Positions 1-19,592 of a stretch of DNA of 64,000 nt are shown here, one piece after another. The translations under genes were made by a program, and so were the position numbers. Source of the stretch: an uncultured Pseudomonadota bacterium (GTDB lineage Bacteria > Pseudomonadota > Alphaproteobacteria > RF32 > CAG-239); the NCBI GenBank assembly GCA_902793695.1, contig CADBEI010000002.1, positions 10,771 through 74,770 of the forward strand. Reading direction: 5' to 3'. Position 1 is the first letter of the stretch, and each line of letters starts with the position of its first letter. The notes below the pieces were generated by a model. The model saw nothing but the letters and a program-made list of their open reading frames with translations. It did no database searches and had not been told where the DNA came from.

Positions 1-113
1 TTCTCCCGCTACCATAACTCAGTATAAACTTATTACTGCACTGAATCGCTGTCAATACATTTTGCCGATTTTCCTGTGTTTTTTATAGTCTGTTGTACAC
101 TTGCACGGTGTTT

Positions 114-1016
114 TTAGGTTACTTCGGTAATGGCGCGTTGGTTACCCATACGTTGAATTTGCACCACATGCAGTTTACGTCGCATTTCATCAAGCGTTTG
201 CTCCACGTTTACGGCGCCGTTGGTTGAGGCCATAATACGCTTAATAAATTGCAAATACGCTTCTTGTGAACTTTCCGCGTGGATGGTGGCAAAGCAATTA
301 TCGTGACCGGAACCCATCAGCTGCCAAATACCGCTGGCATAATCAATATCATTGGTTTGGTTAGTACGAGACATCACGAGGTGAACACGATTCGGGTGAG
401 GCACAATCAACTCACGAGTATCTTCAACCGTAATAATTCGTTTGTGAATATCCAAAATTTTCAGCAAATTATTTAAAAAAGTAGTTTTACCGGTTGATGT
501 TGCGCCGGACACCAAAATGTGTTCACCTCGCTTTATATACAGAAGAAGCCGTTCATAAGCATCGTCCGGTACCTTAATATCTTTAAGCGGATTGAGCTTC
601 ATGAGGGCTTGCCCCTGCTTCATTCCGTAATCTTCGAGACCGAAAGCGACGTCATCGGCGTGAAGACGAATAGCCAAAGCGATACCGCCGGTTAAATCTT
701 CTTCATCATACATGACGTTCCTCCCGCAGATTGCGGAAAAACGGTGATCCCCCGGAATTGTTGCATAAACAAACGGAGAACCTTGTAACGGATCAAACTC
801 CAACTCATAAGTATTGGCAATGATATAGAGTAAATCCGTTAAATATTCTTTTGAAAGCTTTTCATCTTTATACATAACCCACGGATAGGCGCGCTTTCCA
901 CGCATACGGAGCCATATCTGGCCGGCGCGATTTATGGCAACCTCCTCCAGATTATCCTGATTATACCAATAGGATAAAGGTCTTAAAACTGATTCCAATA
1001 CCGAAAAATCACTCAT
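114..1016 (-). CDS. virB11: VirB11-family T4SS traffic ATPase
   Basis: Track ORF is 114..1124. I prefer the internal ATG at 1016 (MSDFSVLES...), 10 nt after the virB10 TAG stop and preceded by GAGAAGGA. Walker A GATSTGKTT, Asp box ITVEDTRELI and His box FATIHA are typical of VirB11/T2SSE ATPases. It is the last gene of the virB-like operon. Confidence 0.85.
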   Translation of the reverse strand: MSDFSVLESVLRPLSYWYNQDNLEEVAINRAGQIWLRMRGKRAYPWVMYKDEKLSKEYLTDLLYIIANTYELEFDPLQGSPFVYATIPGDHRFSAICGRNVMYDEEDLTGGIALAIRLHADDVAFGLEDYGMKQGQALMKLNPLKDIKVPDDAYERLLLYIKRGEHILVSGATSTGKTTFLNNLLKILDIHKRIITVEDTRELIVPHPNRVHLVMSRTNQTNDIDYASGIWQLMGSGHDNCFATIHAESSQEAYLQFIKRIMASTNGAVNVEQTLDEMRRKLHVVQIQRMGNQRAITEVT

Positions 1017-1026
1017 TATCCTTCTC

Positions 1027-4000
1027 CTAAAACATATTTTCCTCGCCCGTACCCAAATCAGGTATGTCGCTATTGCTGTCAATAGCAGGCGGAGGTTGTG
1101 TCGGGTAATTGTTCTGCGGAGCATTTGACGACGGCTGAGAACTCAGGCCTCCCCTGTTTGGTTGCGGTGCCGATACCGGCTGATAATTACCTTGATTATT
1201 GCCGTCATAAGTAACTTCAACATTATCAGCGTTGGCGCCACCATCTGAAAATACCGTGGCTTCTCTGTTGTCATTGCTGTCTCCGTTTCGACCTCTGGTA
1301 CGCCGCGAGCGCTCTTCGTTGTTGAGCCACAAATCCTGATTCGGATAAATTATGATACGCGTGCCGGCCGGAACATAAGCCACGGATTTAATAGCTTGCT
1401 TTCTCTTAATTATATCGTTAATGATTTTCGTAATTTGATCATTAACCTGATTTCGGGCATCTGACATTGCCTCGCTGCGTGCATCTTGCGTTGTGGTTGT
1501 TCCGTTGCTGTTGGTGGTAGAAGTAGAACCATCACCTGATGCCATGGCTATGTTAACCAAGCCTTGTAACGCCGTCGATACGATAGGGAAAGTGTAGCGC
1601 TTCATCAACTGCTCATCCAAATATCCGATAGCACCGGCGCGTCCTTGAGCATCTGCGGTTTGAGCACTGCTAAATCTCCATTGTGAACCATCCGGTCGAA
1701 TAAGACGCTTCCACGTAATATTGATTTTGACCGCACCACCGCTTTCGCCGGAAAGACTATCGCTTTTATTATCAAGACTGCCGATAACTCTCGAGCCGGC
1801 CGGAATAATAATGTTACGCCCTTCTTCCGCAAATACGTTGCGTTCAACAATTGCGGTTACCGGAATCTTTTCTCCCAAGCCGTCGGAAGCATAAACCGAA
1901 CGCGCCAAAACCGCCGGAATTCCCTTATCCTCGAGAATCATCTCACTCATATCAACACGCCAAGAAGATATCTGATTGCCTTGAGGTCCGCCATCCCAAC
2001 CGTCTTCTTCATAGCCGGTAAATACGGACGGATCATATTCTTTCTCTTGTGGCGTTGATATATAACTCTTTAATTGTGAATACATATTCATTCGGCGATT
2101 GTTTTGATAATTCATTACCAAAGCAGCACGTTCCGGACTTAATCTTCCGCCCGGTCCGGTACCTCCGTCAGGACCGACATCGGGTTGTTCCTTGGTATCC
2201 CAAGCTCCGGCCGTTTCCGGAATAAATATAGATGGTTTATTTATTTCAACGGTACCGACAGGGTTATAATTTGTATCAACCACCAAATTATCTTGTCTGT
2301 ATCCGATAACTTCACCATTTTTACCGATAACTTCTCCGTTATCATAAACGTCTCCCATATATTCGCCGGACGGATCAATAAAGAAACCCACAATTTTATT
2401 TCTGTTGCTTCTGCCAGATCGACGAACCGTTACTCCGGTTTCCGGTTTTTGCGTGTCTAATTCTTCCGTTTCATTCGGTATTATGGTAGTAATACTCGGA
2501 CGTCTGCGTTTCCTATCCGCTTCCGGCACCGGTTTGTTGGTGGCGATATAATACTGATATGGTGTGGCCTGCGCAATCTCATTGCCATCGGCATCATGAA
2601 TGGCACCGTTTTCTTTTAAATATCCGATATTTGCTCCTTCGGCATTGACTACCGTATCATTGAGTTGCAACTCACCGACTACGTTATTACTGCTGTCTCT
2701 GACAATATAATCACGATTACCGCGGGCAACAACTTCGCCACGACGAATCACAAAGCCGCGATCCAATTTGCCAAGCTGACTACCGACCATACTCAGCACC
2801 GTACCGTCTTTGGTTAAATAACCGTAAACTACGAAGTTATCGTCATAAACATAGAAATCATACAAGGCATATCCGATATTTGCCCCTTCATATTCAACAC
2901 TGCCGTCAAAATTAATTTGCCCGACAACTCTGTCGCCACTATCTCTGACCTGTCCCGCACCGTCAATCATTCCCAAGAATGTATTGTTGTTTCTGTATGC
3001 AACCTTATAGCGCATCACATTTCCCAAATTCCTTTTGGAGGTAGAAACAACGTTACCGTTCGGCTGCATATAGCCCACCGTCGAGTCGTCGCTGTTAATA
3101 ACCTTACCGGTTGCCAACACATGACCGAAAATCCGATTTTCAAAGTCAATAACCGGCTCCGGTAAAATCACACCATAGCGCTGATGATGTTCCTCGTCCG
3201 TAATTATACCACGACGATCGACACATCCGATATTTTTTCCCTCGGCATTTCTACCGGTTGCACCGCTGACCGTACCGCTGAAATTACCGTCAAAATCTAT
3301 CAAACCGTGTTGCTGTACCGAATAACCGATATAATTACCGACATCGGAAATAGCTTGTCCGTTCGGCAAAATGTGTCCGCTGATAACATCGTGATTATCA
3401 ATGACATCGCCCTTGCCGTCAACCACGCCGATAATACTGCATTTATCGTTGACTACCGTGGAGAACGGTACTAATTTGCCGTTAACAATATCGTTATTAT
3501 CGGTAACATATTCATTATATATCACATGGCCGGCAACATCACCGTTAGTGCCGATAACATTACCTTCGCTGTCGGCATAACCGATTAAGTCGCCGCCGGT
3601 ATTCAAAGCGATAAGTTTGTTACCGCTGAAGCCTTTAATCGGTGAGGTTAACGGAGAAAGCTTATCTTTGGTTTCTACCACATACCCTCCCGGAATAACT
3701 TTATAAGCAATATTCCCCGATTGATCCAAAAGCAGGTTGCTATCTGCAAATGTACCGAGCGGCTTACCGTCATAATCCAAAGCATAACGCGGATTCAAGA
3801 TTTCACCGACAAAGTTTTTACCATCTTGAACTATTCCGGAGCCGGTCAGATGTGTGCCACCCGCACGATATAACGCCCCGTTGGGATCTACGTATGAATA
3901 TAATACACCTTCCGGACCATATACCGCAGAAAGTGAGTATCCGGTGCCGACCGGCTTGCCGTCAGCATTAATCACATAGCCGAACGGTGAAATGTGAACT

Positions 4001-5229
4001 ACCGAGCCACCGACAACCACACCGGCATCAATATTGGAAATACCTACCGGACCATTGTTTTCAAAGGCAATCATACCGTCAACCGTTCCGCCGAGAAGCG
4101 TACCGTTGGTGCTGTACGCCATATTGCCCGACATTTGTCCGATATTCCCGCCGCCGAGCGAAATTACGCGGCCGTTTTTCATACTCTGCCCTTTTAGGCG
4201 CGCCATACTGTCATAAATCGGTCCGGTTTTTACCAAATCGCCGATTTTATTACCGTTTTTATCGTAAACATAACCTTTAGCACCGATATGACCGATAACT
4301 TTATCTCCGTGCATAATATTGCCGTTCGGTGCCAGGTAACCCAAATATTTGCCTGCATTATTATTGGCTGTGGCGGCAATGTCTGCGGCAAACCCGATTA
4401 CATCGCCGGAATCATTTATTAATTTGCCGTCAGCACGATATCTGGCAATTACTTTATCGCCGTCTTTAACTTCACCGTTATAGCCGACTATTCCCAAATA
4501 TTTTCCGGCTTGCGTAAAAGCGTAGCTTGTGGAAATAACGCTGCCGATAACTTTGTCTTGAGCATCATAGGCATAACCGTTGGCGTGAATTTTGCCGACG
4601 GACTTTCCTTCAAAATCAATAATCTGACCGGTAGGCGCTATACTGCCGATAAACTTACCGTCAACCGAAACCACCATTTTGGAAGACATAAGTTTGCCAT
4701 CCAAGATATAGTCTTCGCCGGATTTGCGATAAGCATAGCCGTTGGCGGAAACAAAACCGATGTGTTTTCCTTCCAGCTTCGTATATTCGCCGCCGCCGGT
4801 CAAACGTCCGATAGCTTCTCCGTTTGGCGAATAAATAATTCCCGGATACAGCACCGCACCGATTACATTTGAATTATCATTGATAACCAGTCCGTTAGGT
4901 AAAGATTTACCCAGCGTTTTACCGCTCAAACTGCGCACTACGCCGTCACTGTGAATTTTTCCGAGCAAGCGGTTATCCATACCGATGACAACACCTTGCG
5001 GCACAACACCGCCGATAACTGCTCCGTGTTCGCTCATAATCAAACTGTCAGCCGTAACATATCCTATATTATCGCCATCGGGATTTATAACAATACCGGT
5101 GGAAATTACCTGTCCGATAATATCTCCGTTAAAATCAATAGCCGTAATCTCAGCGGCATAACCGTTGAGTGGCAGGAACATTCCCGCTAAGAATAATATA
5201 TTTTTGGCTTTTCTTATTATTCTCAACAT
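1027..5229 (-). CDS. virB10: Giant VirB10/TrbI-family protein (1400 aa) with a ~1000-aa N-terminal repeat module
   Basis: aa ~1090-1300 match the VirB10/TrbI C-terminal domain (IPAGSRVIGS, INITWKRLIRPDGSQW, DAQGRAGAIGYLDEQL, VPAGTRIIIYPNQDLW). The N-terminus is a hydrophobic signal/anchor (ILFLAGMFLPLNGYAAE). aa ~30-1000 are degenerate units ending in G-x-I/V-G. The start lies 2 nt after the stop of the upstream gene. Confidence 0.8.
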   Translation of the reverse strand: MLRIIRKAKNILFLAGMFLPLNGYAAEITAIDFNGDIIGQVISTGIVINPDGDNIGYVTADSLIMSEHGAVIGGVVPQGVVIGMDNRLLGKIHSDGVVRSLSGKTLGKSLPNGLVINDNSNVIGAVLYPGIIYSPNGEAIGRLTGGGEYTKLEGKHIGFVSANGYAYRKSGEDYILDGKLMSSKMVVSVDGKFIGSIAPTGQIIDFEGKSVGKIHANGYAYDAQDKVIGSVISTSYAFTQAGKYLGIVGYNGEVKDGDKVIARYRADGKLINDSGDVIGFAADIAATANNNAGKYLGYLAPNGNIMHGDKVIGHIGAKGYVYDKNGNKIGDLVKTGPIYDSMARLKGQSMKNGRVISLGGGNIGQMSGNMAYSTNGTLLGGTVDGMIAFENNGPVGISNIDAGVVVGGSVVHISPFGYVINADGKPVGTGYSLSAVYGPEGVLYSYVDPNGALYRAGGTHLTGSGIVQDGKNFVGEILNPRYALDYDGKPLGTFADSNLLLDQSGNIAYKVIPGGYVVETKDKLSPLTSPIKGFSGNKLIALNTGGDLIGYADSEGNVIGTNGDVAGHVIYNEYVTDNNDIVNGKLVPFSTVVNDKCSIIGVVDGKGDVIDNHDVISGHILPNGQAISDVGNYIGYSVQQHGLIDFDGNFSGTVSGATGRNAEGKNIGCVDRRGIITDEEHHQRYGVILPEPVIDFENRIFGHVLATGKVINSDDSTVGYMQPNGNVVSTSKRNLGNVMRYKVAYRNNNTFLGMIDGAGQVRDSGDRVVGQINFDGSVEYEGANIGYALYDFYVYDDNFVVYGYLTKDGTVLSMVGSQLGKLDRGFVIRRGEVVARGNRDYIVRDSSNNVVGELQLNDTVVNAEGANIGYLKENGAIHDADGNEIAQATPYQYYIATNKPVPEADRKRRRPSITTIIPNETEELDTQKPETGVTVRRSGRSNRNKIVGFFIDPSGEYMGDVYDNGEVIGKNGEVIGYRQDNLVVDTNYNPVGTVEINKPSIFIPETAGAWDTKEQPDVGPDGGTGPGGRLSPERAALVMNYQNNRRMNMYSQLKSYISTPQEKEYDPSVFTGYEEDGWDGGPQGNQISSWRVDMSEMILEDKGIPAVLARSVYASDGLGEKIPVTAIVERNVFAEEGRNIIIPAGSRVIGSLDNKSDSLSGESGGAVKINITWKRLIRPDGSQWRFSSAQTADAQGRAGAIGYLDEQLMKRYTFPIVSTALQGLVNIAMASGDGSTSTTNSNGTTTTQDARSEAMSDARNQVNDQITKIINDIIKRKQAIKSVAYVPAGTRIIIYPNQDLWLNNEERSRRTRGRNGDSNDNREATVFSDGGANADNVEVTYDGNNQGNYQPVSAPQPNRGGLSSQPSSNAPQNNYPTQPPPAIDSNSDIPDLGTGEENMF

Positions 5230-5231
5230 TA

Positions 5232-8200
5232 TTAATTCCTCCTATTGCGTGCCACTTCCGGTAAACTGTATCCGGAAACGTTTTTATCGACATCGACAAA
5301 GGAGCCGTTACTCTTTAAGTATCCGACTTCGTTGTTTTGGTTGGAAATAACACGCCCCGTTGCCGACAATCTGCCGATATATTCGCCCTTATCCGACAAT
5401 ATGGTGTTACCGATGGTATAAACGTGCCCCATCAAATTGTTTTGATTATCTACCGCCAATCCGTCAGTCAAAATCTTACCGACAATCGAACCACCGGAGA
5501 ATACTTTACCATCAAAGCCGACAGTACCTTTAATGATGTCATCGCTGCCGATTATGATATCCCCGCTGACGATTTCGCCCAAAAACTTGCCGGTACTGCT
5601 GATAATTTTACCGTCAGGCATTGATTTACCGGCTACAATATGCTTGGTATCAAGGTATTCTCCGCTCAGAGTTGCCGTACCGACAATCTCACCTGCAGAA
5701 TTAATAACCGCACCCGATGATATTGCAACCAAATTACTGTTATTGCCTCCACCCGGCAGCAGTGCAGTAATTTCTTTACGATTGTTACCGACAATTACGC
5801 CCAAACTTGTGGCCAAACCTACCGGATTGCCGTATACGTCGACCATCACACTCTCCGGTAATACCTCGCCGATTATTTTACCTTCTTTAATCACAAATCC
5901 GTCCGGTGTAACGTTACCGGTAATCTCACCGCGACGATATTTACGATCTGAGCCGGATTTGATATTTTCAAGTTCTATCACTTTTCCGGTGGAAACCGCA
6001 TATCCCAGATAAGCACCGTCATACCCGCGAACGCTACCTTGTTTAACCGCGCCGCCTACCAGTCTGCCGCTCTCGTCGAACATTTGACCTTTGGTATTAA
6101 CTTTGCCGATTTTGGTACCTTTATAATCAACAACCGATAAGTCATAATTTATCACACCGATCTTATTACCGTTCATATCAACAACATGCGCCGGACGAAT
6201 TATTTTTGCTACGGCTCCGTTATAAAATCCGATATCGCCTGTATTGATGTTATCAACCACCACTCCCGCCGCATCATATACCAAACCGTCGGCAAATAAG
6301 TGACCGATTATATGTCCGGACGAATCTGCCAATATATTTATTTCCGGTACGGCATACCCGTATATTTTATTGTTCCTGTCCATAATCAGGTTATTGATAC
6401 CGACATATACCGCTCTGCCGTCAACCAAATCCAAGCGCCCTGTCTGATCCAACGTTCCGAGCGGTTTACCGTCAAATCCGTAAACATTTTTTGCATCGGA
6501 TACCTTACCGATATAAGCGGCATCGGCATCATACACATCACCGAAAGCATCGGCGCAACCGACAGCTTCACCTTCTTCGTCACGCAACAAACCGCTTTCA
6601 TCCAACATTCCGACCGGTTTCCACGTTTTGGCCGATATTACAAAACTCTTTTTAACCAAATGCCCTTTAATTTGCGGCTCATTCAAATCCAGTACCGTGC
6701 CATCCGGATTGATGCAACCCACTTCCTGATTATTGCTGTCGCGTACATAACCATCGGCCATAGCTTCACCGATATAAGCACAGTCATCATCATAAACACT
6801 TCCGGTTATCATAGCGCGTCCGGCAAAAGTACCTTCCGGTGTCCAGACCGTTTCGTCCGGATAAACTTTATATCCGGTTTCTTTGCCGTCACGACGGATT
6901 ATGCCGTCTTTATCCAGCTTTAAGCTATAATCGCAACCCCAGTTGACGATATAACCCTGTTTAACGCCTTTTGCCAGAATTTTGGCGCCGGATACATCCG
7001 TTGCCAATCCGTTCGGACGCATTTTACCGACAACCTTCTGCTGATTAACCACCTCACCACGGTTATTAATGGTACCGAGTAATTCGCCTGCCGGTGTAAT
7101 CGGCAGCAGCTGCTTATCAATTATTCCGCCGATGACTCGTTGTCCGAGAGTACGAGCATTTCCGTTTGCGTCAACGATACCGGCAATTTCACTGCCGTTA
7201 TGGATTAAACCGTCTTCACCGACATATCCGAAAACATTACCTTTATCATCTACCGCCAACTTAGCTTTGTTACCTTTACGACCGATGATATTTCCCTGAC
7301 CGTCAACTATATTGCCATTATCGTCAACGTGTCCTTTCAAACTGCCGTCAAAACCGAAAACATTACCATCATCGTCGATATAGCCGAGAGGATTTCCGTT
7401 TTCATCAACCACCAAATCTCTGCTATCGCTGAGATGTCCTATAACATCGCCGGAATAATCTTTACGGATAATCTGACCATTCTCATCCAATGTTCCGAGA
7501 AAAGAACCGTCAAAATTGTGTGCAACTCCGTTTTCATCAACAAAACCGATAAAATTGCCTTCTGTATCCAATGCGATTCGCATATCACCTTTACGGCCGA
7601 TAAGATTACCGTCATCGTCAAAAATGTTACCTTCTTCATCCGCGTGACCTATAAGATTGCCGTCAAAATCAAAAACATTGCCGTCCGGATCGATATAGCC
7701 GATGGCATTACCCTGACTGTCCACCGCTAAATCGCGCTGATAGCCGATAATATTGCCTTTTTCATCAACAATATTACCATTTTCATCTGCTTTGCCGATA
7801 ATAGAACCGTTCATATCGTGAGCAACTCCGTATTCATCGACATAGCCGATAACATTACCGTTGTCATCGACAATTAATTTAACTTTTTGCCCAACCGTGC
7901 CGATGACAGATATTTTCGGCTTATTACCTATAATATTACCGTCTTTATCAACATAGCCGATGATACTGCCGTTGTTGTCATGAACTCGGTTGTTTTCATC
8001 TATATAGCCAATAACATTACCGTCGTTATCTACTGCCAAATCGCGCCATTCATCGCTGACGTGCCCGATGATTTTGCCGCTTTTATCAATTACATTGCCA
8101 TCTTTATCAACCTTACCGATAAGATTGCCGTTAAAATCACGAACATTGCCGTTTTCATCGATATAGCCGATAATATTGCCGGCGTCGTCATACACCATTT

Positions 8201-9467
8201 GTGCCTGACCACCGCGTTTTCCGATTTTTTCATAGGTGGTAACCGTACCGTCGGCGTTCATATGCCCGACAACATTGCCATCGGCATCAACTACATCACC
8301 GTTAGGCATAACCACACCCAAAATATTACCGTCGGCATCCGTAACAACTTCACCGGCTTTAGCCACGCGGCCGATAATGTTGCCGTTTACGTCAATCACA
8401 TTGCCGTTTGCGTCCAAGCGACCGATTACGTTGCCGTCGGCATCAACAACCGTGCCGTCAGGAAGTACTTTGCCCAAAATATTGCCGTTGGCATCAACCG
8501 CAATACCGAAATCTACACCGCGACCGATTATTTTGCCGTTGACATCGACAATCGTGCCATCCGGAAGCATATTACCGATAACGTTACCTTCCATATCGTG
8601 CGCAACTCCGTTGGCATCAACATAGCCGATAACATTGCCGTTTTCATCCAAAATCAGCTTGCCGTTTGAAGCCACACCGATAATGTTGCCGTCTTTATCG
8701 ACAATCATTCCGTCAGCATTAAGTCTGCCGATTTCATTACCATTGGCATCACGGACTATACCATCATCGCCGATTGTGCCGATAATCTTACCGTCAGGGC
8801 CGACGGCATATCGCATACTGCCGTCAATAGATGTTTCCTCCGTACTGCTCGGACCGGTATCGCAATAGTTACAGTTTTCTTTGGTTACGGCGCTGCCGCG
8901 TACCGTTACTTCATCGTGCTTGGCGCTCTGTGCCGAAACATTGGTTTCGTGCCAAATAATTTTAAAGTTGTTCTGCACGTTGGCCGCCATTGTCGGTACC
9001 CATTTGGTCGTTACCATACAGGTTGCTTTTCCGCGCAGTTCTTTATTTTGACAATTTGAGGAATCATAGCTGAAACCATCAAACGGGGCCTCTTCAAGTT
9101 CCACCGACAAAATTCTGATTTCGCGTTTGCCGTTGGTACCTATTGTCAAAACATTGGTAGCTTCGTTACCCAAAACAATTTGCCCCATATTCAATTCGAG
9201 AGGTGACAATGTTATCGGGCGTTCTTCTTCGCTCGGATTGTCCCATTCCACGTCTTCAGGCACTTCCGTAGGTCTTATATTAACATCGGTTTCGGCAGAA
9301 ATTCCGTCTTGTTCAATTCTGACTTCACGCTCTTCTTCTTCGGTACCAGATGTTATTAACATCAAGGCAAACAAGAAAAACAAAAGAGCAATTATGCCGA
9401 TAATCAAAAAGATTTTATCGGTTTTTCTTACATATCTGTCTGATCTTGTTAACGGACCTTTACTCAT
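5232..9467 (-). CDS. 1411-aa bitopic membrane protein made of decapeptide D-x-x-G-N-x-I-G repeats, function unknown
   Basis: Long uninterrupted ORF with a basic N-terminus and one TM (IFLIIGIIALLFFLFALMLI). It carries dozens of units such as VDANGNILGK / LPDGTVVDAD / GNVIGRLDAN. Translationally coupled on both sides (3 nt after the virB9 stop, 2 nt before the virB10 start). Confidence 0.75.
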   Translation of the reverse strand: MSKGPLTRSDRYVRKTDKIFLIIGIIALLFFLFALMLITSGTEEEEREVRIEQDGISAETDVNIRPTEVPEDVEWDNPSEEERPITLSPLELNMGQIVLGNEATNVLTIGTNGKREIRILSVELEEAPFDGFSYDSSNCQNKELRGKATCMVTTKWVPTMAANVQNNFKIIWHETNVSAQSAKHDEVTVRGSAVTKENCNYCDTGPSSTEETSIDGSMRYAVGPDGKIIGTIGDDGIVRDANGNEIGRLNADGMIVDKDGNIIGVASNGKLILDENGNVIGYVDANGVAHDMEGNVIGNMLPDGTIVDVNGKIIGRGVDFGIAVDANGNILGKVLPDGTVVDADGNVIGRLDANGNVIDVNGNIIGRVAKAGEVVTDADGNILGVVMPNGDVVDADGNVVGHMNADGTVTTYEKIGKRGGQAQMVYDDAGNIIGYIDENGNVRDFNGNLIGKVDKDGNVIDKSGKIIGHVSDEWRDLAVDNDGNVIGYIDENNRVHDNNGSIIGYVDKDGNIIGNKPKISVIGTVGQKVKLIVDDNGNVIGYVDEYGVAHDMNGSIIGKADENGNIVDEKGNIIGYQRDLAVDSQGNAIGYIDPDGNVFDFDGNLIGHADEEGNIFDDDGNLIGRKGDMRIALDTEGNFIGFVDENGVAHNFDGSFLGTLDENGQIIRKDYSGDVIGHLSDSRDLVVDENGNPLGYIDDDGNVFGFDGSLKGHVDDNGNIVDGQGNIIGRKGNKAKLAVDDKGNVFGYVGEDGLIHNGSEIAGIVDANGNARTLGQRVIGGIIDKQLLPITPAGELLGTINNRGEVVNQQKVVGKMRPNGLATDVSGAKILAKGVKQGYIVNWGCDYSLKLDKDGIIRRDGKETGYKVYPDETVWTPEGTFAGRAMITGSVYDDDCAYIGEAMADGYVRDSNNQEVGCINPDGTVLDLNEPQIKGHLVKKSFVISAKTWKPVGMLDESGLLRDEEGEAVGCADAFGDVYDADAAYIGKVSDAKNVYGFDGKPLGTLDQTGRLDLVDGRAVYVGINNLIMDRNNKIYGYAVPEINILADSSGHIIGHLFADGLVYDAAGVVVDNINTGDIGFYNGAVAKIIRPAHVVDMNGNKIGVINYDLSVVDYKGTKIGKVNTKGQMFDESGRLVGGAVKQGSVRGYDGAYLGYAVSTGKVIELENIKSGSDRKYRRGEITGNVTPDGFVIKEGKIIGEVLPESVMVDVYGNPVGLATSLGVIVGNNRKEITALLPGGGNNSNLVAISSGAVINSAGEIVGTATLSGEYLDTKHIVAGKSMPDGKIISSTGKFLGEIVSGDIIIGSDDIIKGTVGFDGKVFSGGSIVGKILTDGLAVDNQNNLMGHVYTIGNTILSDKGEYIGRLSATGRVISNQNNEVGYLKSNGSFVDVDKNVSGYSLPEVARNRRN
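7190..8825 (-). repeat. Most regular part of the coding repeat array (~30-nt units, higher-order ~45-50-codon period)
   Basis: Protein aa ~215-760 read as consecutive 10-residue units. A recurring super-unit reads LAVD..GN.IGYID..G.V.D..G..IG..D..GNI.D..GN.IG. At DNA level 7811-7870 and 8591-8650 are ~52/60 identical by hand count. Confidence 0.7.
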
Positions 9468-9470
9468 TTG

Positions 9471-11072
9471 CTATTGCACCCTGACTACACTACAAAATAC
9501 TCCGTTGCGCCCTAATTGACTGCATACCGCGTCTCCGCTGTCCAAACTTTTGACCGGACCGATACGCAGGTGAAACAATTCCTTACCCTGTCCGTCTGCC
9601 GGAGCGTCAACCGAATAAAACGGTTCATACCCGCCCAGCAATGAAGAATAACGTCCGGATAAATCATGCCACAACGCTTCCAAATTGTTCACATTGGAGT
9701 CTGTTCCCAATTCTATCGACAGAACGTCCGAAGTTTGGCCTTCAAAGCCGCTGCCGTAACGATATTGTGATTGAATGTTTCTGAATTTCGGATCATCACT
9801 GAAACTGAGCGGAGTCATACCATTGCAATCCGCATCTTTAGCCGATGACGAAGACGAAGCAGATCCCGCGCCGAAACTGCCGGCCGCACCGTTAGGCATA
9901 TATACGCCACCATTGCTGTCAACTCTTACGGCGCCATTGCCGTTATTTGAAGCTCCGCTGCCGTTACCGGATGCATTTCCGGTTCCGTTTGCCCCGCCGC
10001 TGCCGTTTGTTATGCCGCCCGGAATTGCCGGCGCAACATCCCACTCATTACTGGTATCGGCATAGGTAACATATTGTGTTCCCTCATCATCGGAACGACG
10101 CATTTTCAAGCATACCATACGTTTACCGCTACGCATAACCATATCGCCGACACCTTCCACAATAATCAGTCGGTTATTCGGCCCTTTGGTACGAAAACCT
10201 ACCGGTGTTTCCGAGCGTTCGATAATCATTGTTACAATCGGACGCTGTACCATATTTATGGCCTTTTCGCCCAGATCTATATAAGTGAAAATATCATCAT
10301 GCCATACCCGTTCCGGTGCAATAATCACATCATCCGGATTCGGAACATAGATTTCCATATCAAAACGAAACTTTTCCGGATCCATCGGAATACTTCTGAG
10401 CCAGTCTTCTTTCAAAAAACGTCTGGTGTAGGTGGCATCAACTCTTTTATTGTTATTGTCAAATCCGATACCGCCCGAACTGCCGCCTATCTTGCCGCCC
10501 CTGGGACTACCTCCCGATGCGCCGTTTTGGTCGACAACATCAATATCTATGATGGAATTGGTAATTCTTTCGGAGTTGACGCCCTCTCCGCGAACATAAA
10601 ACACATATTTGTTACCGGATCTGCCGAAAACAATCAGGTTGGTATCGCTGCCTACGGCATAAGGCGTTACCGGATACAGCATAAGCGAACTCGGTTTGCT
10701 GATTTTTCCGCCGAAATTCGCCGGGTCACCCAGTTGTGCATCTTCAATTAATTCCCACTCCGGAAAATTAATCAAGGTCATCATACCCTCACGCAAACGA
10801 ATCGGCAACACCAAATCAGGCGACCAATAATATTTTGAATAAGCCGGCTTGCTTTGTCCTTCGCCTAAATTCTGCAGAGGATCTTGCCAAGCTTCCTGAA
10901 ACATACCGGTACCGAATCCGGTGTATGTCATATTTTGGGCAGGATAATTACCCTGTGTTTGATCTGCCGATTGGTTCAAACTGTCATCGCTGACCAAACC
11001 TGCGGCATACAGGTTTTGCATAAATAACATTCCCGTAATCGTTAATATCAATGTTTTAATGCTCTTTCTCAT
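9471..11072 (-). CDS. virB9: VirB9/CagX/TrbG-family protein with G/S/N-rich linker and C-terminal SPOR-like domain
   Basis: Signal peptide (LILTITGMLFMQNLYAAG). The N-terminal half resembles VirB9 (YYWSPDLVLPIRLREGMMTLINFPEWE..., NLIVFGRSGNKYVFYVRGEG). aa ~345-420 are a low-complexity G/S/N/A linker. The last ~80 aa look like SPOR (LSIELGTDSNVNNLEALWHDL..., FHLRIGPVKSLDSGDAVCSQLGRNGVFCSVVRV). Confidence 0.75.
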   Translation of the reverse strand: MRKSIKTLILTITGMLFMQNLYAAGLVSDDSLNQSADQTQGNYPAQNMTYTGFGTGMFQEAWQDPLQNLGEGQSKPAYSKYYWSPDLVLPIRLREGMMTLINFPEWELIEDAQLGDPANFGGKISKPSSLMLYPVTPYAVGSDTNLIVFGRSGNKYVFYVRGEGVNSERITNSIIDIDVVDQNGASGGSPRGGKIGGSSGGIGFDNNNKRVDATYTRRFLKEDWLRSIPMDPEKFRFDMEIYVPNPDDVIIAPERVWHDDIFTYIDLGEKAINMVQRPIVTMIIERSETPVGFRTKGPNNRLIIVEGVGDMVMRSGKRMVCLKMRRSDDEGTQYVTYADTSNEWDVAPAIPGGITNGSGGANGTGNASGNGSGASNNGNGAVRVDSNGGVYMPNGAAGSFGAGSASSSSSAKDADCNGMTPLSFSDDPKFRNIQSQYRYGSGFEGQTSDVLSIELGTDSNVNNLEALWHDLSGRYSSLLGGYEPFYSVDAPADGQGKELFHLRIGPVKSLDSGDAVCSQLGRNGVFCSVVRVQ

Positions 11073-11087: not shown

Positions 11088-11840
11088 TTAATCTTTGATT
11101 TGTTTGACCGTGTATGTCATAACCGTGAATCCCACAGGATTTTTTAGTCTTTCTTTGTACGAAACGCGTTGCGGAACATACTGTATGCGCATACTGGCGC
11201 GATATCTCAATTTCTTTGGCGTATACGATGACGGCAGATAATAGTCCACGCTGTATTCAACCTGCCACACAGCCTCGGAAATTTCATTCACCGTGATGAT
11301 CGTAACATTACTGGTTAAGCCGTCCTCTTTCATTCGTTTCATCAACTTCGGGCCGGTTTCACTCATAAATTCCTGATACACAATCGGAGACGACATCTTT
11401 TGCAAATCGCCGCCGTTTTGCCACCGCGCTTCCATCTCTTCAATATCCGAAAGCAATGTCGTACGCAACAAAACATATTGACGAATAAATGTTTCCGTAA
11501 TGGATTTTTTGGCCTCCATATCGCGGCTGTACGGAACAATATTGTAGACCTGTTCGGCCTTGTTGGATAAGGTCAGTAAATACGGTTCAACCCGATACAG
11601 CGGAAGAATGGCAGATATTGTCAGCAACAAAATCAGATTGCAGCATAAACTGATGGCTGTAACAACTGCAAAGGCGCGTGCTGTCCATAAATATCTTCTT
11701 TCACTGGCATTAACCACCAAACTGTCTTCATCGCGTGCGATTTCCCGCTGAATAGCGGTACGGGCACCTTGTGCCGGACGTCTTTGTCCGGAGGCGATTA
11801 GCTTTTGCTGTGTGTTATTTACCCCTAACTGATCCGCCAT
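11088..11840 (-). CDS. virB8: VirB8-family protein, paralog 2
   Basis: 250 aa with a cytoplasmic N-terminus, a single TM (AFAVVTAISLCCNLILLLTISAILPL) and a periplasmic domain with a VirB8-like FIRQYV motif. Clearly paralogous to 12192..12944. Confidence 0.7.
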   Translation of the reverse strand: MADQLGVNNTQQKLIASGQRRPAQGARTAIQREIARDEDSLVVNASERRYLWTARAFAVVTAISLCCNLILLLTISAILPLYRVEPYLLTLSNKAEQVYNIVPYSRDMEAKKSITETFIRQYVLLRTTLLSDIEEMEARWQNGGDLQKMSSPIVYQEFMSETGPKLMKRMKEDGLTSNVTIITVNEISEAVWQVEYSVDYYLPSSYTPKKLRYRASMRIQYVPQRVSYKERLKNPVGFTVMTYTVKQIKD

Positions 11841-11855: not shown

Positions 11856-12044
11856 CTATATTGTTTCCCAAAACCAATCCGGTACGTTTTTAATGACATC
11901 AATTTGCATACAGGCACAAGGCGACAACTTCAGCTCATTGATGTCCTTACCGATTCCCACGGCTTCCGGTTCATAATACGAACCGAACAAACTGCAAGCC
12001 GACAGAATTAAAAGTATAGCAAAAATCAAAAATTTTTTATACAT
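11856..12044 (-). CDS. virB7: Small lipoprotein, VirB7-like by size, lipobox and position
   Basis: 62 aa with signal peptide and lipobox LILSAC|S. It sits immediately upstream of virB8/virB9. No sequence motif beyond the lipobox. Confidence 0.5.
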   Translation of the reverse strand: MYKKFLIFAILLILSACSLFGSYYEPEAVGIGKDINELKLSPCACMQIDVIKNVPDWFWETI

Positions 12045-12191: not shown

Positions 12192-12944
12192 TTATTCTCT
12201 TATTTCACTTTGGTTATATTTAATCACCGTAAACCCTATCGGATTTAACAATCTGGTTCTTAACAAGCGCCGTTCGGGAATATAGGCCGGCGTTATTGAC
12301 GCTTTGTAGCGCATTGTCTTCAAGGTTAACGAACCGGATGAATTGCGCGCTTTAGACAGATTAAAAGTGGTAAACGTCACTAACCACGCCGGTGAATCTT
12401 CGCTTTCTTTGCCGATTTTATCAATCTGAACTTCGCTGGAGTAGCCGTTATCGAACATTTTATCAATTGTTTTCACGTTCTTACCGACAAAATCCCAATA
12501 AACTTCCGGTGACGACATATATTGTACAATCCCTCCCGGTCCCCAACGTGTTCGCATTTCCTGCTCATCATTAATCACCGTATTACGCACAATGATATAT
12601 TGCCGTATAAACATCTCGGTAAGTTGTTTTTCTGAAGGCATTTTTTTATCAATCGGCTCATAACGAACAACATTTTCCGAATCTTTTTGATTGATTATCA
12701 AGAGCGGTTCCACCACAATTTCGCGTGACAGTCGGAAAATTACCAAAGTAGAACTCAAAAAGAACCCGAGCGAAATGATGGCACACAAAATAACCAAACG
12801 CGACAACCATCTGAAGTAAACCTCCTTACTGGATGTTGTTTCTTGTCTGACATCGTTGATAAAATGCGGTCGGTAACCGGCATTTGATTTCCGATTACCA
12901 TCCGCTATTAAAATACGCTTTGCGCCATCTCCCAGCTGAGCCAC
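12192..12944 (-). CDS. virB8: VirB8-family protein, paralog 1
   Basis: 250 aa with the same architecture as 11088..11840 (TM VILCAIISLGFFLSSTLVIF). Shared motifs are MFIRQYIIVRNT / TFIRQYVLLRTT and NPIGFTVIKY / NPVGFTVMTY. Confidence 0.7.
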   Translation of the reverse strand: MAQLGDGAKRILIADGNRKSNAGYRPHFINDVRQETTSSKEVYFRWLSRLVILCAIISLGFFLSSTLVIFRLSREIVVEPLLIINQKDSENVVRYEPIDKKMPSEKQLTEMFIRQYIIVRNTVINDEQEMRTRWGPGGIVQYMSSPEVYWDFVGKNVKTIDKMFDNGYSSEVQIDKIGKESEDSPAWLVTFTTFNLSKARNSSGSLTLKTMRYKASITPAYIPERRLLRTRLLNPIGFTVIKYNQSEIRE

Positions 12945-12965: not shown

Positions 12966-15900
12966 TTAATAACGTGGATATACACCACAATACGGGCGCA
13001 AATGACGTTTTAAGCGACTTATACGCTCTCTGTCCTGTTCCTTAGCCGTTTCGGAAACAACTTTCCAATCGGCATAGGCTTTCTTTATTTTCTCGTCCAT
13101 TTCCGTGCAATCCAGCTCGCCTCCGTCAATCGAACATTCATCACCGATAATCATTACCAAATCTCCCGGATAGTCGTCAATACCCAGTTTTTCTTTGGCA
13201 TACTCCGGAGTATCATATTGATACAACATGGCAGAACGCATAACTTCATTACGGCGGAGATTTATGGTTTCGAGCGCCTCACCTTCGCTTTCTACTTCGT
13301 TTTCTCCTTCGCCTTCTTTTTTGACGGTTGTTGCTTTTACTTCCGACAACTTATTCATAGCGCTTGCAATCGCCGCATCTTTTTCTTCCTGCAGTTTCTG
13401 GCGCAAGCGTTTATAATCTTCCGACTGACACTCGACGAATCTTTCGATTTCTTCGGTATTTTCTTCCTCGTCAAATTTATCCATATCTATTTCGCATGCC
13501 ATATTGAAGTCTTCGCCGAACACAAAATCCGCATCTTTTAAAACTTCAGCCAATTCGAGTTCTGTGGTTTTAGCTTTTTTCTCCGCGTTGAGAAGATTAT
13601 TTTGCGTAATGCGCATTATTTCAATCTGCTCAAGATAATCGCCGAGTTGATTTTTCTCCAAGAAAACCCGATTTGTCGCATCTTTAAGCGAAGTTTCTTC
13701 TTCGTGCCCCTCTTGACCGTAGTCTTCTACTGCCGTATACAAGGCGCGTACCAAAACATCATTGAAAGTCAGACGCATAACACCGTTGGCAACTTCATCT
13801 TTGCATTCAGGAGTTTCGGCCATACATTGCGGATTGCCGTGGCATTTTGAGATGCAAGCTTCCTCATCGTGATGAATGACAATAGCCTGATTATACAGAT
13901 TTGGCAACACCGGCGGGAACCCCGAATGACGCATGGTGTCTTCTTCATTATAATATGTGATGATATTGCTGAGTTCGCTCACTTCCGTATAATCGGCACC
14001 GCCGTACGGATATACAAAATCGTAGGTATGATTATCCATCAGTGCGCTGGCTTCTTTATCATAAATTTTGATTCCCTCGCCGGTTTCCGGTTTCTCTACC
14101 CGTACTTGCAGTGCCTGGCACTCCGGTACAGCCGCAATTTTTTCGGCAACACTGGCATCTTCCACCGTCAACAGTGTAGAAAATCTCAACCACTCCGGAT
14201 GTTTGGTAACACGCGCTTCCAACGGTACCGGATATCTGACTGTTCCGCGCGTGTTCTTTTCCAACGGTGTATTCGGAACGGCATATTGGAAATTGCTGTT
14301 AATATCAATAAAGTACTGAATAGGCACGCCGGTAGACGTGTTATTCGCGTTCATATATGTTCTGCCCGTCGGCTTACCCTTCATATCGTATTCATAAGAA
14401 CGACACGGATACAAACCGGAGCGTCGAACTTCCTGCTGGGCACGAAGTGCATTGACTCTGTCTTCTTCATTTGTGCCGTTTTCAACACCGATAAGTTTAG
14501 CTAAATCAAATTGTTTCTGAACATAGGTACGCGGCAACAATATATATTTCCACCACCGCGGCATAATGGCATTTCTCGCAGCATCCTCGCCCTCAATATA
14601 GTTATCGGTGGAATTAATATTGGTATTCGGAGCGCTGAGCAATTCCTTCAAAAAGAGACGACGACTGAAGAACATAAGCTTATTCATACCGCGTTCTACC
14701 GGAATATCATCGTCCGAAACTTTATGATATATTGAAATAGCATCAAAATCATCGCGGGAAAAGTGGAAAGCTTCACGCAGGAACATACCGTCATCTCCTA
14801 TACCGCAGCCGATAGGATACGGTGCCATAAAGTCACGCGGCTGTCCGATTAGGCCCACAAAGTAACCGCCCGGTTCTTCATCATCGTCGCTCGGTTCCTT
14901 AATATTATCACAAGATTCTTGATCTCGGTCACTCTCAAAATCAAGTTCCACCGGTGCCTCTTTACATTTTTCGGCATTTTCTCCGCAGATTGATTCAAAC
15001 ACATTGTTTGACATCACGGAAGAAAAGCCCGGAATCTCCGGTAAACCGCCACATTCTGCCGGACTGAATTTGAGTAAATATTCATCAAACAGTGCACGAT
15101 GCGATTTGAGAATACTTCTGCATTTCGGAGCTTTGGTAAAGTTTACATAGTTCCTTACGGAATAATTGTAACCCATACACGGTTCTTTATATTCCTTTTC
15201 CCATTCTTCCACCTTCTTTACCAGTTTTTCACGCACGCAAGTCAAAAATTCTCCGGCTCCCGGCAATATTGTCGAAAAATCAATATTCTGGCCATTTACC
15301 GATATGGATGTAGGGCTGAATGATGCTCGAGCTGCTCTCATATTTTGGGCGGCGTTTCTCATATTCAGCATTTCGATATATTCGGCATCGCTCATATCTT
15401 TGATGTATTGATGATGGGCTTCAGCCAATTTTTCATCGAGTTCTTCTATTTTTTCTTTGCACTTTTCGATTTCATCCTCATATCTTTTGGCTTCTTCTTT
15501 GGCCTCATCTTTTTTGGTTTGAGCCGCTTCCGCTATTTCTTTGGAATCATCTTCAAGTTTTTTGAAATTCTTCGACTGCGGAGTTTCGTCCGGATTAACG
15601 TCGTCACGTCCGGCATCTTCATACAATCTGCGGTTGGCATCTTTAGCCGTTTGCGAGGCTTCTTCAACCAGTTTGGCACTTCCGACTTCACGAGTCATCT
15701 GATTATATTCGCTGTTTTTCTTGCTTAATTTTCCGGCGAATTCTTCTTTTTTCTCAACCCACTCTTTTCTCTTTTTCACCCAAGGTTCAATTTTTTTCTT
15801 ATATTTTTTATCAATTTGCACGAACATCGCATCTTGTGCTTCAATCATTTTTTTAATCTCTTTTTGTTCGTTTTCTTGATAAGTTTCCAATGCTTCTTTT

Positions 15901-18335: not shown

Positions 18336-18350
18336 TGTACCCTCCCTCAA

Positions 18351-19592
18351 TTAAAAGAACTCTTTTACCTTGCTTTTGATGGTTTCTTTTGCCGTTCTTT
18401 TTGATTTTGACAGCCAATCTTCTTTTGTCATCATATAATCATCCAAATTAAACTTGGTTATATCTTTTTCATAGTCGCGCAGTGCATATTTGTTGTCCCA
18501 TTTTTGCATTTCCGCCGTTGTATCCAATTGTATCATTGCCAACAAAATTTCCAAATAACCGACGGCAACTATGGAATTTTGCATCTCAACGCATTGACGC
18601 AATCCCATTGCGCCGAACACTCCGTCTGCTCTTAATGATTCATCGGCACAAGATATGCTGCGTTCATTGGTTTCCTTAATGCTTACTTGTGTACTCACAA
18701 CCGTTTCCAACGCATTTTTAACTGCGTCATAGTATTCTCTCTGACGTTCTTTCACTACTCGACGAATATTCTCCGGATTTGCTGGTTCGTCTTCTTCCAA
18801 AAACAGTTTACTGATAACCGTTTTGTACATTTCCTTTTCTTCTTTGTCCGGATCGACATCAAACAATTTCATCAACTCGGTCTGCATTTTATCCGTCATA
18901 TTTTTCTCGGAATATTTTGCTTTTGCTTTTTCAATTTGCTTTTGCAGTTTTTCCATTCTCTCTTTGGATTTTTTAACTTTCGGAGTATCCAACACTTCGG
19001 TTTCGTCGTTTTGCTGCATTTGTTCGGCCAAATCGGCGATTGATTTATCCAGAGCGTCCAATTGAGCCACTCTATCCGGAGTAGACTCTTGGGCAATCAA
19101 CGCATCCAGAGCATTACGTTGCGAAACAAGGATACTCATTTGCTTTTGCATTTCCACTTTTTTATCAAGTTTGGCTTTTTCTGCCGCTTCAATTTCCGCT
19201 TCCATCTGTTTTTTGTGGTTAGCATAATCTTTACTTAAGTCATTCAACTGATCGACAAAAGTCTGCAACATCTCGTCGGCAGAATAATCGGAAGCCTTAT
19301 ATTGTCCTTTAGCCGCGGCAATGGCGACATCGGCTGATTCCTCGACAACATCCTTAAACATTTTCATACTTTCATTATTGCCGGCTTGCAGAGTTTTCTT
19401 ATTCAACTGCTCCATAATGTTGGCAGTTATGGTTTCCTGATTATCACTGTCCTTGAAAATCTTTTTAGCCAAATCCTCCAGCAATGTGGTGATTTCCAAA
19501 AAAGCCAGTGCCCGCGCCGGCGGCGTGTATATACAGAATGAACCCAACAAATATACAACGAGCAATAATGCTCCCTTTTTACTTATTTTCAT
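18351..19592 (-). CDS. Secreted coiled-coil protein, unknown (possible VirB5/TrbJ analog)
   Basis: Track ORF extends to 19706. The ATG at 19592 (MKISKKGALLLVVYLLGSFCIYTPPARA) follows AGGAGG and overlaps the upstream gene by 14 nt. The sequence is K/E/Q-rich and helical. Confidence 0.6.
   Translation of the reverse strand: MKISKKGALLLVVYLLGSFCIYTPPARALAFLEITTLLEDLAKKIFKDSDNQETITANIMEQLNKKTLQAGNNESMKMFKDVVEESADVAIAAAKGQYKASDYSADEMLQTFVDQLNDLSKDYANHKKQMEAEIEAAEKAKLDKKVEMQKQMSILVSQRNALDALIAQESTPDRVAQLDALDKSIADLAEQMQQNDETEVLDTPKVKKSKERMEKLQKQIEKAKAKYSEKNMTDKMQTELMKLFDVDPDKEEKEMYKTVISKLFLEEDEPANPENIRRVVKERQREYYDAVKNALETVVSTQVSIKETNERSISCADESLRADGVFGAMGLRQCVEMQNSIVAVGYLEILLAMIQLDTTAEMQKWDNKYALRDYEKDITKFNLDDYMMTKEDWLSKSKRTAKETIKSKVKEFF

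Follow-up and report, generated by a model that had tools for sequence, protein, structure and literature searches.

A giant VirB10 with a beta-flower-class repeat module is probably the outer-membrane-proximal half of a VirB10 divided between two genes

We analysed a 64,000-nucleotide (nt) stretch of DNA, referred to here as the window (contig CADBEI010000002.1, positions 10,771 to 74,770, assembly GCA_902793695.1), from an uncultured alphaproteobacterium. Our subject is the open reading frame (ORF) at 1027..5229, which encodes a VirB10 homologue of 1400 amino acids (aa) that we call B10. B10 is probably one half, the outer-membrane-proximal one, of a giant VirB10 now encoded by two adjacent, coupled genes within a chromosomal, rvh-like, P-type type IV secretion system (T4SS). 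The product of the gene directly upstream, here called BF, would supply the other half, and together BF and B10 may work as a VirB10 of two chains and build an enlarged scaffold in the periplasm. The parts of B10 are as follows.

1027..5229, minus strand: virB10 (B10), 1400 aa, an intact open frame; Pfam Bflower_2 9.9e-41 and TrbI 1.4e-30.
5155..5229, minus strand: putative Sec signal peptide, aa 1-25, ending in ...LNGYA and followed by AEITAIDF.
2560..5151, minus strand: beta-hairpin repeat module, aa 27-890, of the beta-flower / DUF3659 / YD-like class.
2395..2547, minus strand: charged, disordered linker of low conservation, aa ~895-945; predicted local distance difference test (pLDDT) <50 at aa 899-943 in the AlphaFold2 (AF2) model.
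2242..2394, minus strand: small additional beta-hairpin unit, aa 946-996; AF2 strands, pLDDT ~80-85.
1939..2241, minus strand: Gly/Pro-rich pre-barrel region, aa 997-1097, which from sequence occupies the position of the VirB10 proline-rich linker.
1324..1938, minus strand: TrbI/VirB10 C-terminal beta-barrel domain with putative antenna helix-loop-helix, aa 1098-1302; PF03743.
1030..1323, minus strand: N/S/G/P-rich C-terminal tail (by composition count), aa 1303-1400, ~98 aa.

An earlier note on this DNA had described a giant VirB10 of ~1400 aa, on the scale of Helicobacter pylori CagY, with its conserved domain at aa ~1090-1300. This description holds. The 1400-codon ORF is intact, no frameshift of the kind that the note had allowed for divides it, and the Pfam TrbI profile PF03743 is covered at positions 2-188 of its 188 by B10 aa 1098-1302 (E = 1.4e-30). 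Two NCBIfam models match the barrel as well, ComB10 (8.1e-33) and VirB10 (4.3e-23), both below their equivalog cut-offs. Among NCBIfam models and solved structures the best match to the barrel is ComB10: the crystallised H. pylori ComB10 (2bhv) aligned in sequence with B10 aa ~1095-1302 (E = 2.3e-19), and the phmmer alignment of the two continues through the antenna-equivalent segment at aa ~1215-1275. The barrel chains of CagY matched with E values of 3e-6 to 6e-5. In the pre-barrel region, LGPGGGYGQGERYDP is present in the family consensus, and the small beta unit ahead of it gave a weak Pfam Bflower match at aa 950-995. The tail that the note had put at ~100 aa is indeed there, at ~98 aa, and is rich in N, S, G and P.

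We found more than 100 homologous protein clusters with the B10 architecture, and tblastn found relatives in 254 stretches of a species-representative genome collection. Hence, B10 is not an assembly artefact. Such proteins already carry the NCBI label 'TrbI/VirB10 family protein'.

The cytoplasmic tail and the inner-membrane transmembrane (TM) segment of VirB10 are not on B10; both are on BF. No TM-grade segment was detected in B10, in which no 19-residue window reached a Kyte-Doolittle value of 1.6. Its N-terminus consists of a basic n-region, an h-region of 10-14 residues and an AxA site. Among the homologues inspected, the h-region is variable, the AxA follows it, and then comes a near-invariant EITA[IV][DN]F; residues 18-26 of B10 are of low confidence in the AF2 model. 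A variable h-region ahead of a conserved AxA/EITA[IV][DN]F is the signature of a cleaved Sec signal peptide, and we infer that the signal peptide of B10 is likely cleaved. The features of the partner gene that matter here are these.

5232..9467, minus strand: BF, the upstream partner, 1411 aa; Pfam Bflower_2 1.4e-70.
9345..9467, minus strand: cytoplasmic motif and TM anchor of BF, aa 1-41; MSKGPLTRSDRYVRKTDK-IFLIIGIIALLFFLFALML.
5227..5243, minus strand: junction of the BF stop and the B10 start; AGGAGGAATTAATAATG, as read from the sequence.

BF begins with an 18-residue cytoplasmic tail, followed by a TM helix at aa 19-37 (Kyte-Doolittle 3.24), a domain of ~180 residues and ~1200 residues of hairpin repeats paralogous to those of B10. 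Across ~850 residues BF is 26% identical to the B10 module, and RHS_repeat and YD profiles match weakly both in BF and in the fused giants described below. Separate BF proteins (~1000-1580 aa) carry the NCBI name 'DUF3659 domain-containing protein'. The gene order around B10 in the window is virB9 - BF - virB10 - virB11. A virB10 ORF was identifiable in 47 loci, and directly upstream of it 42 of these have a large ORF; in 39 of those 42 it has the full BF N-terminus, MSKExLTHS[DE]RYV[RK]KTNRIIL plus a TM segment, and virB11 directly follows virB10 in most of the 47. In annotated related loci, virB9 stands before virB10 or before the fused giant. The gap between the BF stop and the B10 ATG is 2 nt, and a Shine-Dalgarno sequence, AGGAGG, lies within the last BF codons; this arrangement suggests that BF and B10 are translationally coupled. 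Many uncultured Alphaproteobacteria of gut and rumen share this split giant VirB10 design. The earlier note had cited the BF span merely as part of a range for a dot-plot (1027-9467), and both the partner role of BF and the missing anchor of B10 were overlooked.

Single-chain proteins that unite the two halves occur in other lineages. A barrel-region search over 1.84 billion representative proteins returned, just beyond B10's own clade, VirB10 homologues of 1888-2406 aa. The search with BF returned ~70 clusters of single-chain TrbI proteins of ~1900-2430 aa, covering 92-100% of BF; overall, the single-chain Bflower_2 plus TrbI proteins with BF-like N-termini measure 1888-2433 aa. All four of the fused giants that were scanned have Bflower_2 (E values down to 5e-107) together with a C-terminal TrbI. 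Their N-termini read …SSSEQY[VI]KKSNR… followed by a TM segment, and the motif L[ST]xS[DE]xY[VIL][KR]K[ST]N[RK] plus TM is common to BF and the N-termini of fused VirB10s. Neither of two genomes with a fused gene has a separate BF: the order is virB8-(65-aa ORF, the size of virB7)-virB8-virB9-[one 2201-aa gene]-virB11 in one and virB8-virB9-[one 1930-aa gene]-virB11 in the other. BLASTP placed both window proteins collinearly on one fused giant, P0165, with BF aa 1-1401 aligned to its aa 1-1511 and B10 aa 31-1380 to its aa 780-2155. In their sources the fused giants are named 'hypothetical protein' or 'DUF3659 domain-containing protein', and within the literature searched they are undescribed.

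We built a simple neighbour-joining (NJ) distance tree of the barrel from 64 sequences and 211 columns. VirB10s of ordinary size fell outside the giant forms. The split forms made up one clade with 95-96% bootstrap, and the fused forms were monophyletic in just 2-4% of bootstraps. The most economical reading is that the split forms arose among the fused forms. An ordinary VirB10 would first have gained a hairpin array and become a fused giant; one lineage would then have cut this giant, and the new downstream gene would have acquired a signal peptide.

What are the repeats? Compared with shuffles, glycine autocorrelation over B10 aa ~27-890 had peaks at lags 17 and 34 (z = 10.2 and 7.5, respectively), and the same autocorrelation gave no signal at either lag in the barrel and tail. 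The pattern [DNEQGSK]xx[IVLA]G occurs 39 times in B10, against 20.2 +/- 4.0 in shuffles. The module comprises ~50 hairpins of 17 aa over ~860 aa. The earlier note had seen repeats from aa ~30 to ~1000; they are repetitive beyond chance, but the repetitive body stops at about aa 890. Nor did the unit proposed there survive: the structural unit is a hairpin of 17 residues made of two 8-9-residue half-units, not a unit of 9-11 residues, and the strict ending G-x-[IVL]-G occurs only four times in B10.

Pfam assigns the module to the beta-flower class. Bflower_2 (PF21785) scored 138.5 bits against a cut-off of 38 over six stretches of B10, Bflower (PF21784) scored 44.3 bits against a cut-off of 25, and DUF3659 (PF12396) was matched weakly. 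When ten overlapping 130-aa fragments were compared with Pfam, the beta-flower profile matched in arbitrary register, and aa 375-590 were unmatched. With this arbitrary register and the unmatched stretch, the module could not be divided into single 'flowers'. The beta-flower is a fold known from AlphaFold models alone. Its description in 2023 is of a small, shallow barrel in which 8-12 short strands form hairpins tipped with [DNEQ]xxG, and no function is known for it (PMC10584680). The earlier note had allowed that the repeats might belong to a well-characterised family with an unrelated role. They do match a named family, but it is a family without a known role; hence the match does not give the module an unrelated one.

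The AF2 model of B10 aa 1-1000, for which a 53-sequence family alignment was the input, bears out the beta-structure that the note had proposed (mean pLDDT 87.4; predicted template modelling score, pTM, 0.81). Between aa 28 and 887 it contains ~100 short strands, mostly with pLDDT >90, and the DSSP assignment is essentially beta only. A strand of five residues, a turn of four, a strand of three and a loop of five make up the pattern. A separate AF2 model of aa 588-830 gave pLDDT 94 and pTM 0.84. With a pTM of 0.81 across 1000 residues, the prediction for the B10 module is a single, rigid, all-beta body rather than beads on a string.

Foldseek searches of the PDB with both B10 models matched only beta-hairpin-repeat proteins, with TM-scores of 0.05-0.2: Rhs cores of type VI secretion systems (T6SS), BC shells of Tc toxins, teneurin YD shells, the combined repetitive oligopeptides (CROPs) of TcdB, and choline-binding proteins. 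For the 1000-aa model the best matches were T6SS Rhs cores and Tc BC shells (E = 5.5e-25 to 1e-11), although on Rhs-type shells its TM-score was ~0.10 and its root mean square deviation ~29 Å. The 243-aa model of aa 588-830 reached TM-scores of at most 0.14 on Rhs and teneurin sheets. Searched by sequence against the PDB, neither the B10 module nor BF gave a match. The hairpins thus appear locally like YD or cell-wall-binding repeats, in a higher-order arrangement that, judging by the models, has no solved counterpart. A solenoid and an Rhs shell were both rejected as the global fold, the matches being confined to the level of local hairpins at TM-scores of at most 0.2.

The earlier note had suggested that the module might be a variable element, citing the repeat rearrangements of CagY. 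We found neither the DNA repeats nor the length variants that this would involve. Scans of window positions 1-10000 for tandem and direct DNA repeats detected nothing recombinogenic in B10, and no tandem array scored there; repeat copies inside 1027-5229 are only 60-75% identical to one another. Length is fixed across species: 103 of the 120 best homologous clusters measure 1382-1425 aa at 40-85% identity, and the segment at aa 588-830 (243 aa) is 243-246 aa long in 53 of 53 aligned homologues. It is also fixed within clusters, as the listed full-length members of nine 90%-identity clusters (20-220 members each) have the same length or differ by 1-5 aa, a cluster-based check that may miss alleles clustered apart. 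Ratios of nonsynonymous to synonymous substitution rates (dN/dS), computed for B10 against its two closest orthologues, were 0.04-0.05 in the module and 0.09-0.10 in the barrel, compared with 0.27-0.38 in the linker, 0.20-0.34 in the tail, and 0.20-0.38 for linker, pre-barrel region and tail together. Constraint on the module is therefore stronger than on the barrel. By windowed identity the variable parts of B10 are aa 901-1000 (the lowest) and aa 1301-1400, not the repeats, and identity in the tail is 16-38% among homologues. Many Gly and aromatic positions are invariant along the entire module. B10 has only two Cys residues, 597 and 669; both lie in the module and both are invariant among homologues. 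These data argue that the B10 module is a structural element rather than an antigenic or phase-variable one. The CagY analogy thus stands for size only, and fails for the sequence of the module, its type of secondary structure and its variability.

Modest repeat-number polymorphism does occur in the pair, and it sits in the inner-membrane half.

7368..7970, minus strand: BF cassette zone, aa ~500-700, with 36-64% gaps among 26 orthologues.

Outside this zone the alignment of the 26 BF orthologues is free of gaps. Across species, BF can be as short as about 1100 aa or as long as 1737 aa. The span 7272-8201, which encloses the zone, contains families of DNA repeats, some of them spaced 147-162 nt apart. 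In two other species, BF alleles that are 97-99% identical differ by one in-frame cassette of 52-53 residues; these cassettes, of three hairpins each, are at aa 535 and aa 586 (P0606/P0610 and P0618/P0619).

Perhaps, then, the arrays face the surface or the host, and in-frame repeat changes tune T4SS activity or evade immunity, as in CagY? B10 is near CagY in size with its repeats likewise N-terminal to a VirB10 barrel, CagY (PMC10706595) and DotG (PMC6761968) offer precedents for variable repeats in VirB10 homologues, and the BF cassette zone varies both between species and, by 52-53 aa, between near-identical alleles. However, B10 itself has no DNA repeats above ~75% identity, a length that is fixed across species and in clusters of up to 220 sequences, and a module dN/dS of 0.04-0.05 with invariant Gly, aromatic and Cys positions throughout; what varies is its linker and tail, not its repeats. 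We therefore consider such tuning very improbable for B10. An alternative that is compatible with purifying selection is that the arrays bind peptidoglycan or another polysaccharide of the envelope or of a target cell, as an anchor to the sacculus or an adhesin. Among the local Foldseek matches are the TcdB CROPs and the choline-binding repeats of CbpF, LytA and LytC, and the neighbouring VirB9 bears a SPOR peptidoglycan-binding domain. Yet every one of the structural matches has a TM-score of at most 0.2, no ligand-binding motif was identified, and glycan binding leaves unexplained why anchor and barrel are on one chain in sister lineages. We regard it as a minority possibility with some weight, and it may be an added property rather than an alternative.

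The matches to Rhs cores and Tc BC shells (E = 5.5e-25 to 1e-11), the weak RHS_repeat and YD profile matches in BF and the fused giants, and a module close in size to an Rhs core could instead point to a hollow YD-repeat cocoon that encloses cargo, such as a toxin or the protein's own tail. This explanation is very unlikely: superposition fails for the 1000-aa and 243-aa models alike (TM-scores 0.05-0.14), neither B10 nor BF has a DPxG[LW] autoproteolysis motif, no toxin domain is detectable by Pfam, the C-terminal partner is a VirB10 barrel, and Pfam scores are far higher for the beta-flower than for RHS. Could the split itself be an error, with a single gene cut by misassembly or a frameshift, or with repeats collapsed? 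BF and B10 are adjacent, co-oriented and 2 nt apart, and single-gene versions exist in other lineages. But the split recurs in dozens of independent assemblies, every B10 begins with its own putative signal peptide, a Shine-Dalgarno sequence precedes the B10 ATG, and the repeats are too divergent in DNA to collapse during assembly; an artefact is scarcely credible.

We thus favour the split giant VirB10, and propose the following arrangement. B10 would be exported, and its barrel would join VirB9 and VirB7 in the outer-membrane ring, while its array would remain in the periplasm beneath the VirB9/VirB10 ring. Fused giants have the array flanked by an inner-membrane helix on one side and an outer-membrane barrel on the other, which places it in the periplasm; by the same topology the B10 module is likely periplasmic. 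The rigid B10 array would hang down and meet the BF array projecting from the inner membrane, so that the two chains jointly restore the VirB10 bridge from inner to outer membrane. Repeated around the ring, such pairs would build a very large, all-beta periplasmic scaffold around the translocation channel, which would play the part ascribed to the CagY repeat region, or to DotG with DotF, in other expanded systems. The two invariant Cys residues are compatible with a disulfide or an oxidising compartment, and that every hairpin is strongly constrained agrees with tight packing in a structural assembly.

Several points weigh against the split-bridge reading. Cleavage of the B10 signal peptide is judged by sequence pattern, and the N-terminus might instead be an uncleaved short anchor. 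Our structural statements are based on AF2 pLDDT and pTM values, DSSP strings and Foldseek tables. All giant forms group together with 63-67% bootstrap in what is a simple NJ tree. In BLAST comparisons of the BF C-terminus and the B10 N-terminus with the fused giants the repeats cross-match in many registers, so that the fission point cannot be mapped. Work cited by PMC6761968 reported CagY as surface-exposed, a warning that topology can be a misleading argument. We saw no VirD4, relaxase or polytopic VirB6 either in the window or after virB11 in relatives.

The remaining genes of the operon, and the virB11 gene that follows B10, are these.

114..1124, minus strand: virB11 ATPase; NCBIfam VirB11 2.1e-33; likely start Met37, nt 1016.
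9471..11072, minus strand: virB9 (CagX domain) with a C-terminal SPOR domain; PF03524 2.3e-12, PF05036 8.2e-4.
11088-11840, minus strand: virB8b; Pfam VirB8.
11856-12044, minus strand: VirB7-like lipoprotein, 62 aa, lipobox LILSAC, MYKKFLIFAILLILSAC; between the two virB8 genes.
12192-12944, minus strand: virB8a; Pfam VirB8.
12966-18350, minus strand: 1794-aa secreted protein without a family match.
18351-23643, minus strand: five signal-peptide ORFs without a family match.
23729-26158, minus strand: virB4 with an N-terminal TM segment.
26907-28111, minus strand: three VirB2-like pilin genes (132, 143 and 118 aa), tandem and hydrophobic.

The longest virB11 ORF (336 aa) overlaps the virB10 3' end by 98 nt (1017-1124). 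Since virB11 orthologues measure 322-325 aa, the real start is probably Met37 (MSDFSVLES, nt 1016). The SPOR domain of VirB9, a peptidoglycan-binding domain, is at aa 459-531 and falls slightly below the cut-off (E = 8.2e-4); VirB9 with SPOR is not a combination known from model T4SSs. The 62-aa lipobox ORF is likely the VirB7 equivalent. Between virB4 and virB8, at 12966-23643, six successive ORFs (1794, 451, 400, 523, 224 and 173 aa) have signal-peptide-like N-termini. None of the six has a significant Pfam match and the four largest are also without an NCBIfam match; the counterpart of the 1794-aa ORF measures 1235 aa in a related locus (L069). Two of the three small ORFs at 26907-28111 match the TrbC/VirB2 pilin profile, which suggests multiple pilin paralogues.

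Because the window includes uvrA and tyrS, we take the system to be chromosomal. Downstream of virB11, relatives carry yidC, ptsP and genes for an EngB-like GTPase and a DEAD helicase, all of them housekeeping genes. Sister lineages have their vir genes divided into separate islets. An Rfam scan of the whole window found no match. Adjoining the T4SS operon at 28541-40089 is a type IVb-pilus-like cluster, mostly on the plus strand, whose layout we take to resemble that of the R64 thin pilus.

30918-32546: secretin of the pilus-like cluster.
32568-33833: PilO-family accessory protein of the cluster.
35671-37425: T2SSE ATPase of the cluster.
37439-38560: T2SSF platform protein of the cluster.
39118-40089, minus strand: second T2SSE-family ATPase of the cluster.

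G+C content is 0.31 in the last 2 kb (62001-64000), compared with 0.40-0.48 elsewhere in the window. AT skew is -0.14 to -0.24 at 14001-24000, over the unannotated secreted-protein genes, and much weaker over virB8-virB11.

Nearly all of the best 80 of the 254 tblastn stretches come from metagenome-assembled genomes (MAGs) of rumen, gut or faecal origin, and the labels among these 80 include Alphaproteobacteria, 'Rhodospirillaceae' and 'Azospirillum sp.'; the taxonomy of relatives was taken from record titles. Six (L026, L027, L030, L038, L060 and L066) bear the titles Bacteroidaceae, [Ruminococcus] gnavus, Lachnospiraceae or Lactobacillaceae. On a locus of this alphaproteobacterial T4SS such titles probably reflect mis-binning or mislabelling.

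Giant repeat-bearing VirB10 homologues (CagY, DotG) are already known, as is the beta-flower family in Pfam. We found no paper, among open-access papers and bioRxiv preprints, that links beta-flower repeats to VirB10 or describes this T4SS. What appears to be undescribed is the combination of beta-flower repeats with a giant VirB10, the scale of ~2200-2800 residues per functional VirB10, and a bridge subunit divided between two chains, one for the inner and one for the outer membrane. A split bridge in a conserved lineage is a ready-made test of how far VirB10 function depends on covalent continuity. CagY (helical, variable) and DotG (pentapeptide, variable) would be joined by a giant VirB10 of a third kind, whose repeats are all-beta, rigid and under strong constraint; such a module speaks against assuming that VirB10 gains repeats for the sake of variation. 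It also places the beta-flower fold, known from predictions, in a defined machine. The system is chromosomal in abundant, uncultured Alphaproteobacteria of the human gut and rumen whose biology is nearly unknown, and a large conserved secretion machine beside a type IVb pilus locus hints at a contact-dependent lifestyle.

A further and more tentative proposal, which we would rather doubt than assert, is that this is a third, structurally independent expanded T4SS, in which each VirB10 unit would contain ~2000-2800 residues of beta-flower arrays; in the lineage of the window its two chains would dock non-covalently, with the BF cassette zone setting span or stoichiometry. Non-covalent docking of the arrays would make the coupling of inner and outer membranes, and hence the gating of the channel, reversible and regulatable. 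If true, this would be the first cellular role for the beta-flower fold.

How does B10 compare with known systems? VirB10 is described as alone among the subunits in connecting the inner-membrane complex with the outer-membrane core complex (PMC12857230). Like canonical members of the family (Agrobacterium tumefaciens VirB10, pKM101 TraF, R388 TrwE and H. pylori ComB10), B10 has a C-terminal TrbI barrel, with a putative antenna, a Gly/Pro-rich stretch ahead of it, and a gene between virB9 and virB11. Unlike them it is about three times as long, with ~860 aa of beta-hairpin repeats inserted, and it has a putative signal peptide in place of the cytoplasmic tail and TM segment, the anchor being on a separate upstream protein.

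CagY of H. pylori (1927 aa) is also a giant VirB10 homologue, with ~1000 aa of repeats N-terminal to the barrel. The region of repeats in the middle of CagY is made up of short alpha-helical, Cys-rich A and B modules, shows more polymorphism than any other part of the protein and undergoes rearrangement (PMC10706595). The B10 module, in contrast, is all-beta, has two Cys residues and no recombinogenic DNA repeats, and is length-invariant and strongly constrained. A TM helix is part of the single CagY chain itself, whereas the anchor of B10 is on BF. We found no PDB or Pfam likeness of B10 to CagY outside the barrel, and among the operon ORFs scanned neither Pfam nor NCBIfam revealed Cag-specific partners.

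DotG/IcmE of the Legionella type IVB system is, like B10, a VirB10 homologue enlarged by repeats. Its repeats are pentapeptides whose number differs, and which recombine, between species and strains, and DotF/IcmG, the bitopic inner-membrane protein encoded by the adjacent gene, is reported to interact with it (PMC6761968). By analogy, DotG with DotF may be the nearest functional counterpart of the BF-B10 pair. The periodicity of B10 is 17 residues, not five, and no pentapeptide family matched B10 in Pfam. DotG keeps its own inner-membrane anchor, whereas B10 does not. The N-terminal motif and TM segment of BF are common to the fused giant VirB10s. The window system is P-type (VirB-like) and the Legionella system I-type.

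In Rickettsia, islet C of the rvh system has the core order virB8a-virB7-virB8b-virB9-virB10-virB11 (PMC2653234). The window shares with the Rickettsiales rvh system this islet C order, the duplicated virB8, the ComB affinities and an alphaproteobacterial host, and in sister lineages the vir genes are likewise spread over separate islets; it differs in the extra giant gene between virB9 and virB10, in the absence of virD4 directly after virB11, and in the size of VirB10, which in Rickettsia (RvhB10) is ordinary. The window system thus looks rvh-like, a relatedness judged by gene order only.

The described beta-flowers (PF21784/PF21785, clan CL0395; Durairaj et al., Nature 2023) resemble the B10 module in their short antiparallel hairpins with [DNEQ]xxG-type turns. 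They are, however, stand-alone predicted barrels of ~100 aa with 8, 10 or 12 strands and 4-, 5- or 6-fold symmetry, whereas in B10 ~50 hairpins are concatenated and fused to a subunit of a secretion system. The closest counterparts are the fused gut VirB10s (P0165, 2201 aa; P0149, 2350 aa; P0192, 2406 aa). They share with B10 the class of repeat and the barrel (38-47% identity), and with the window locus the BF N-terminal motif and the gene neighbourhood. In these proteins the whole is one polypeptide of canonical bitopic topology, whereas in the lineage of the window it is encoded by two genes.

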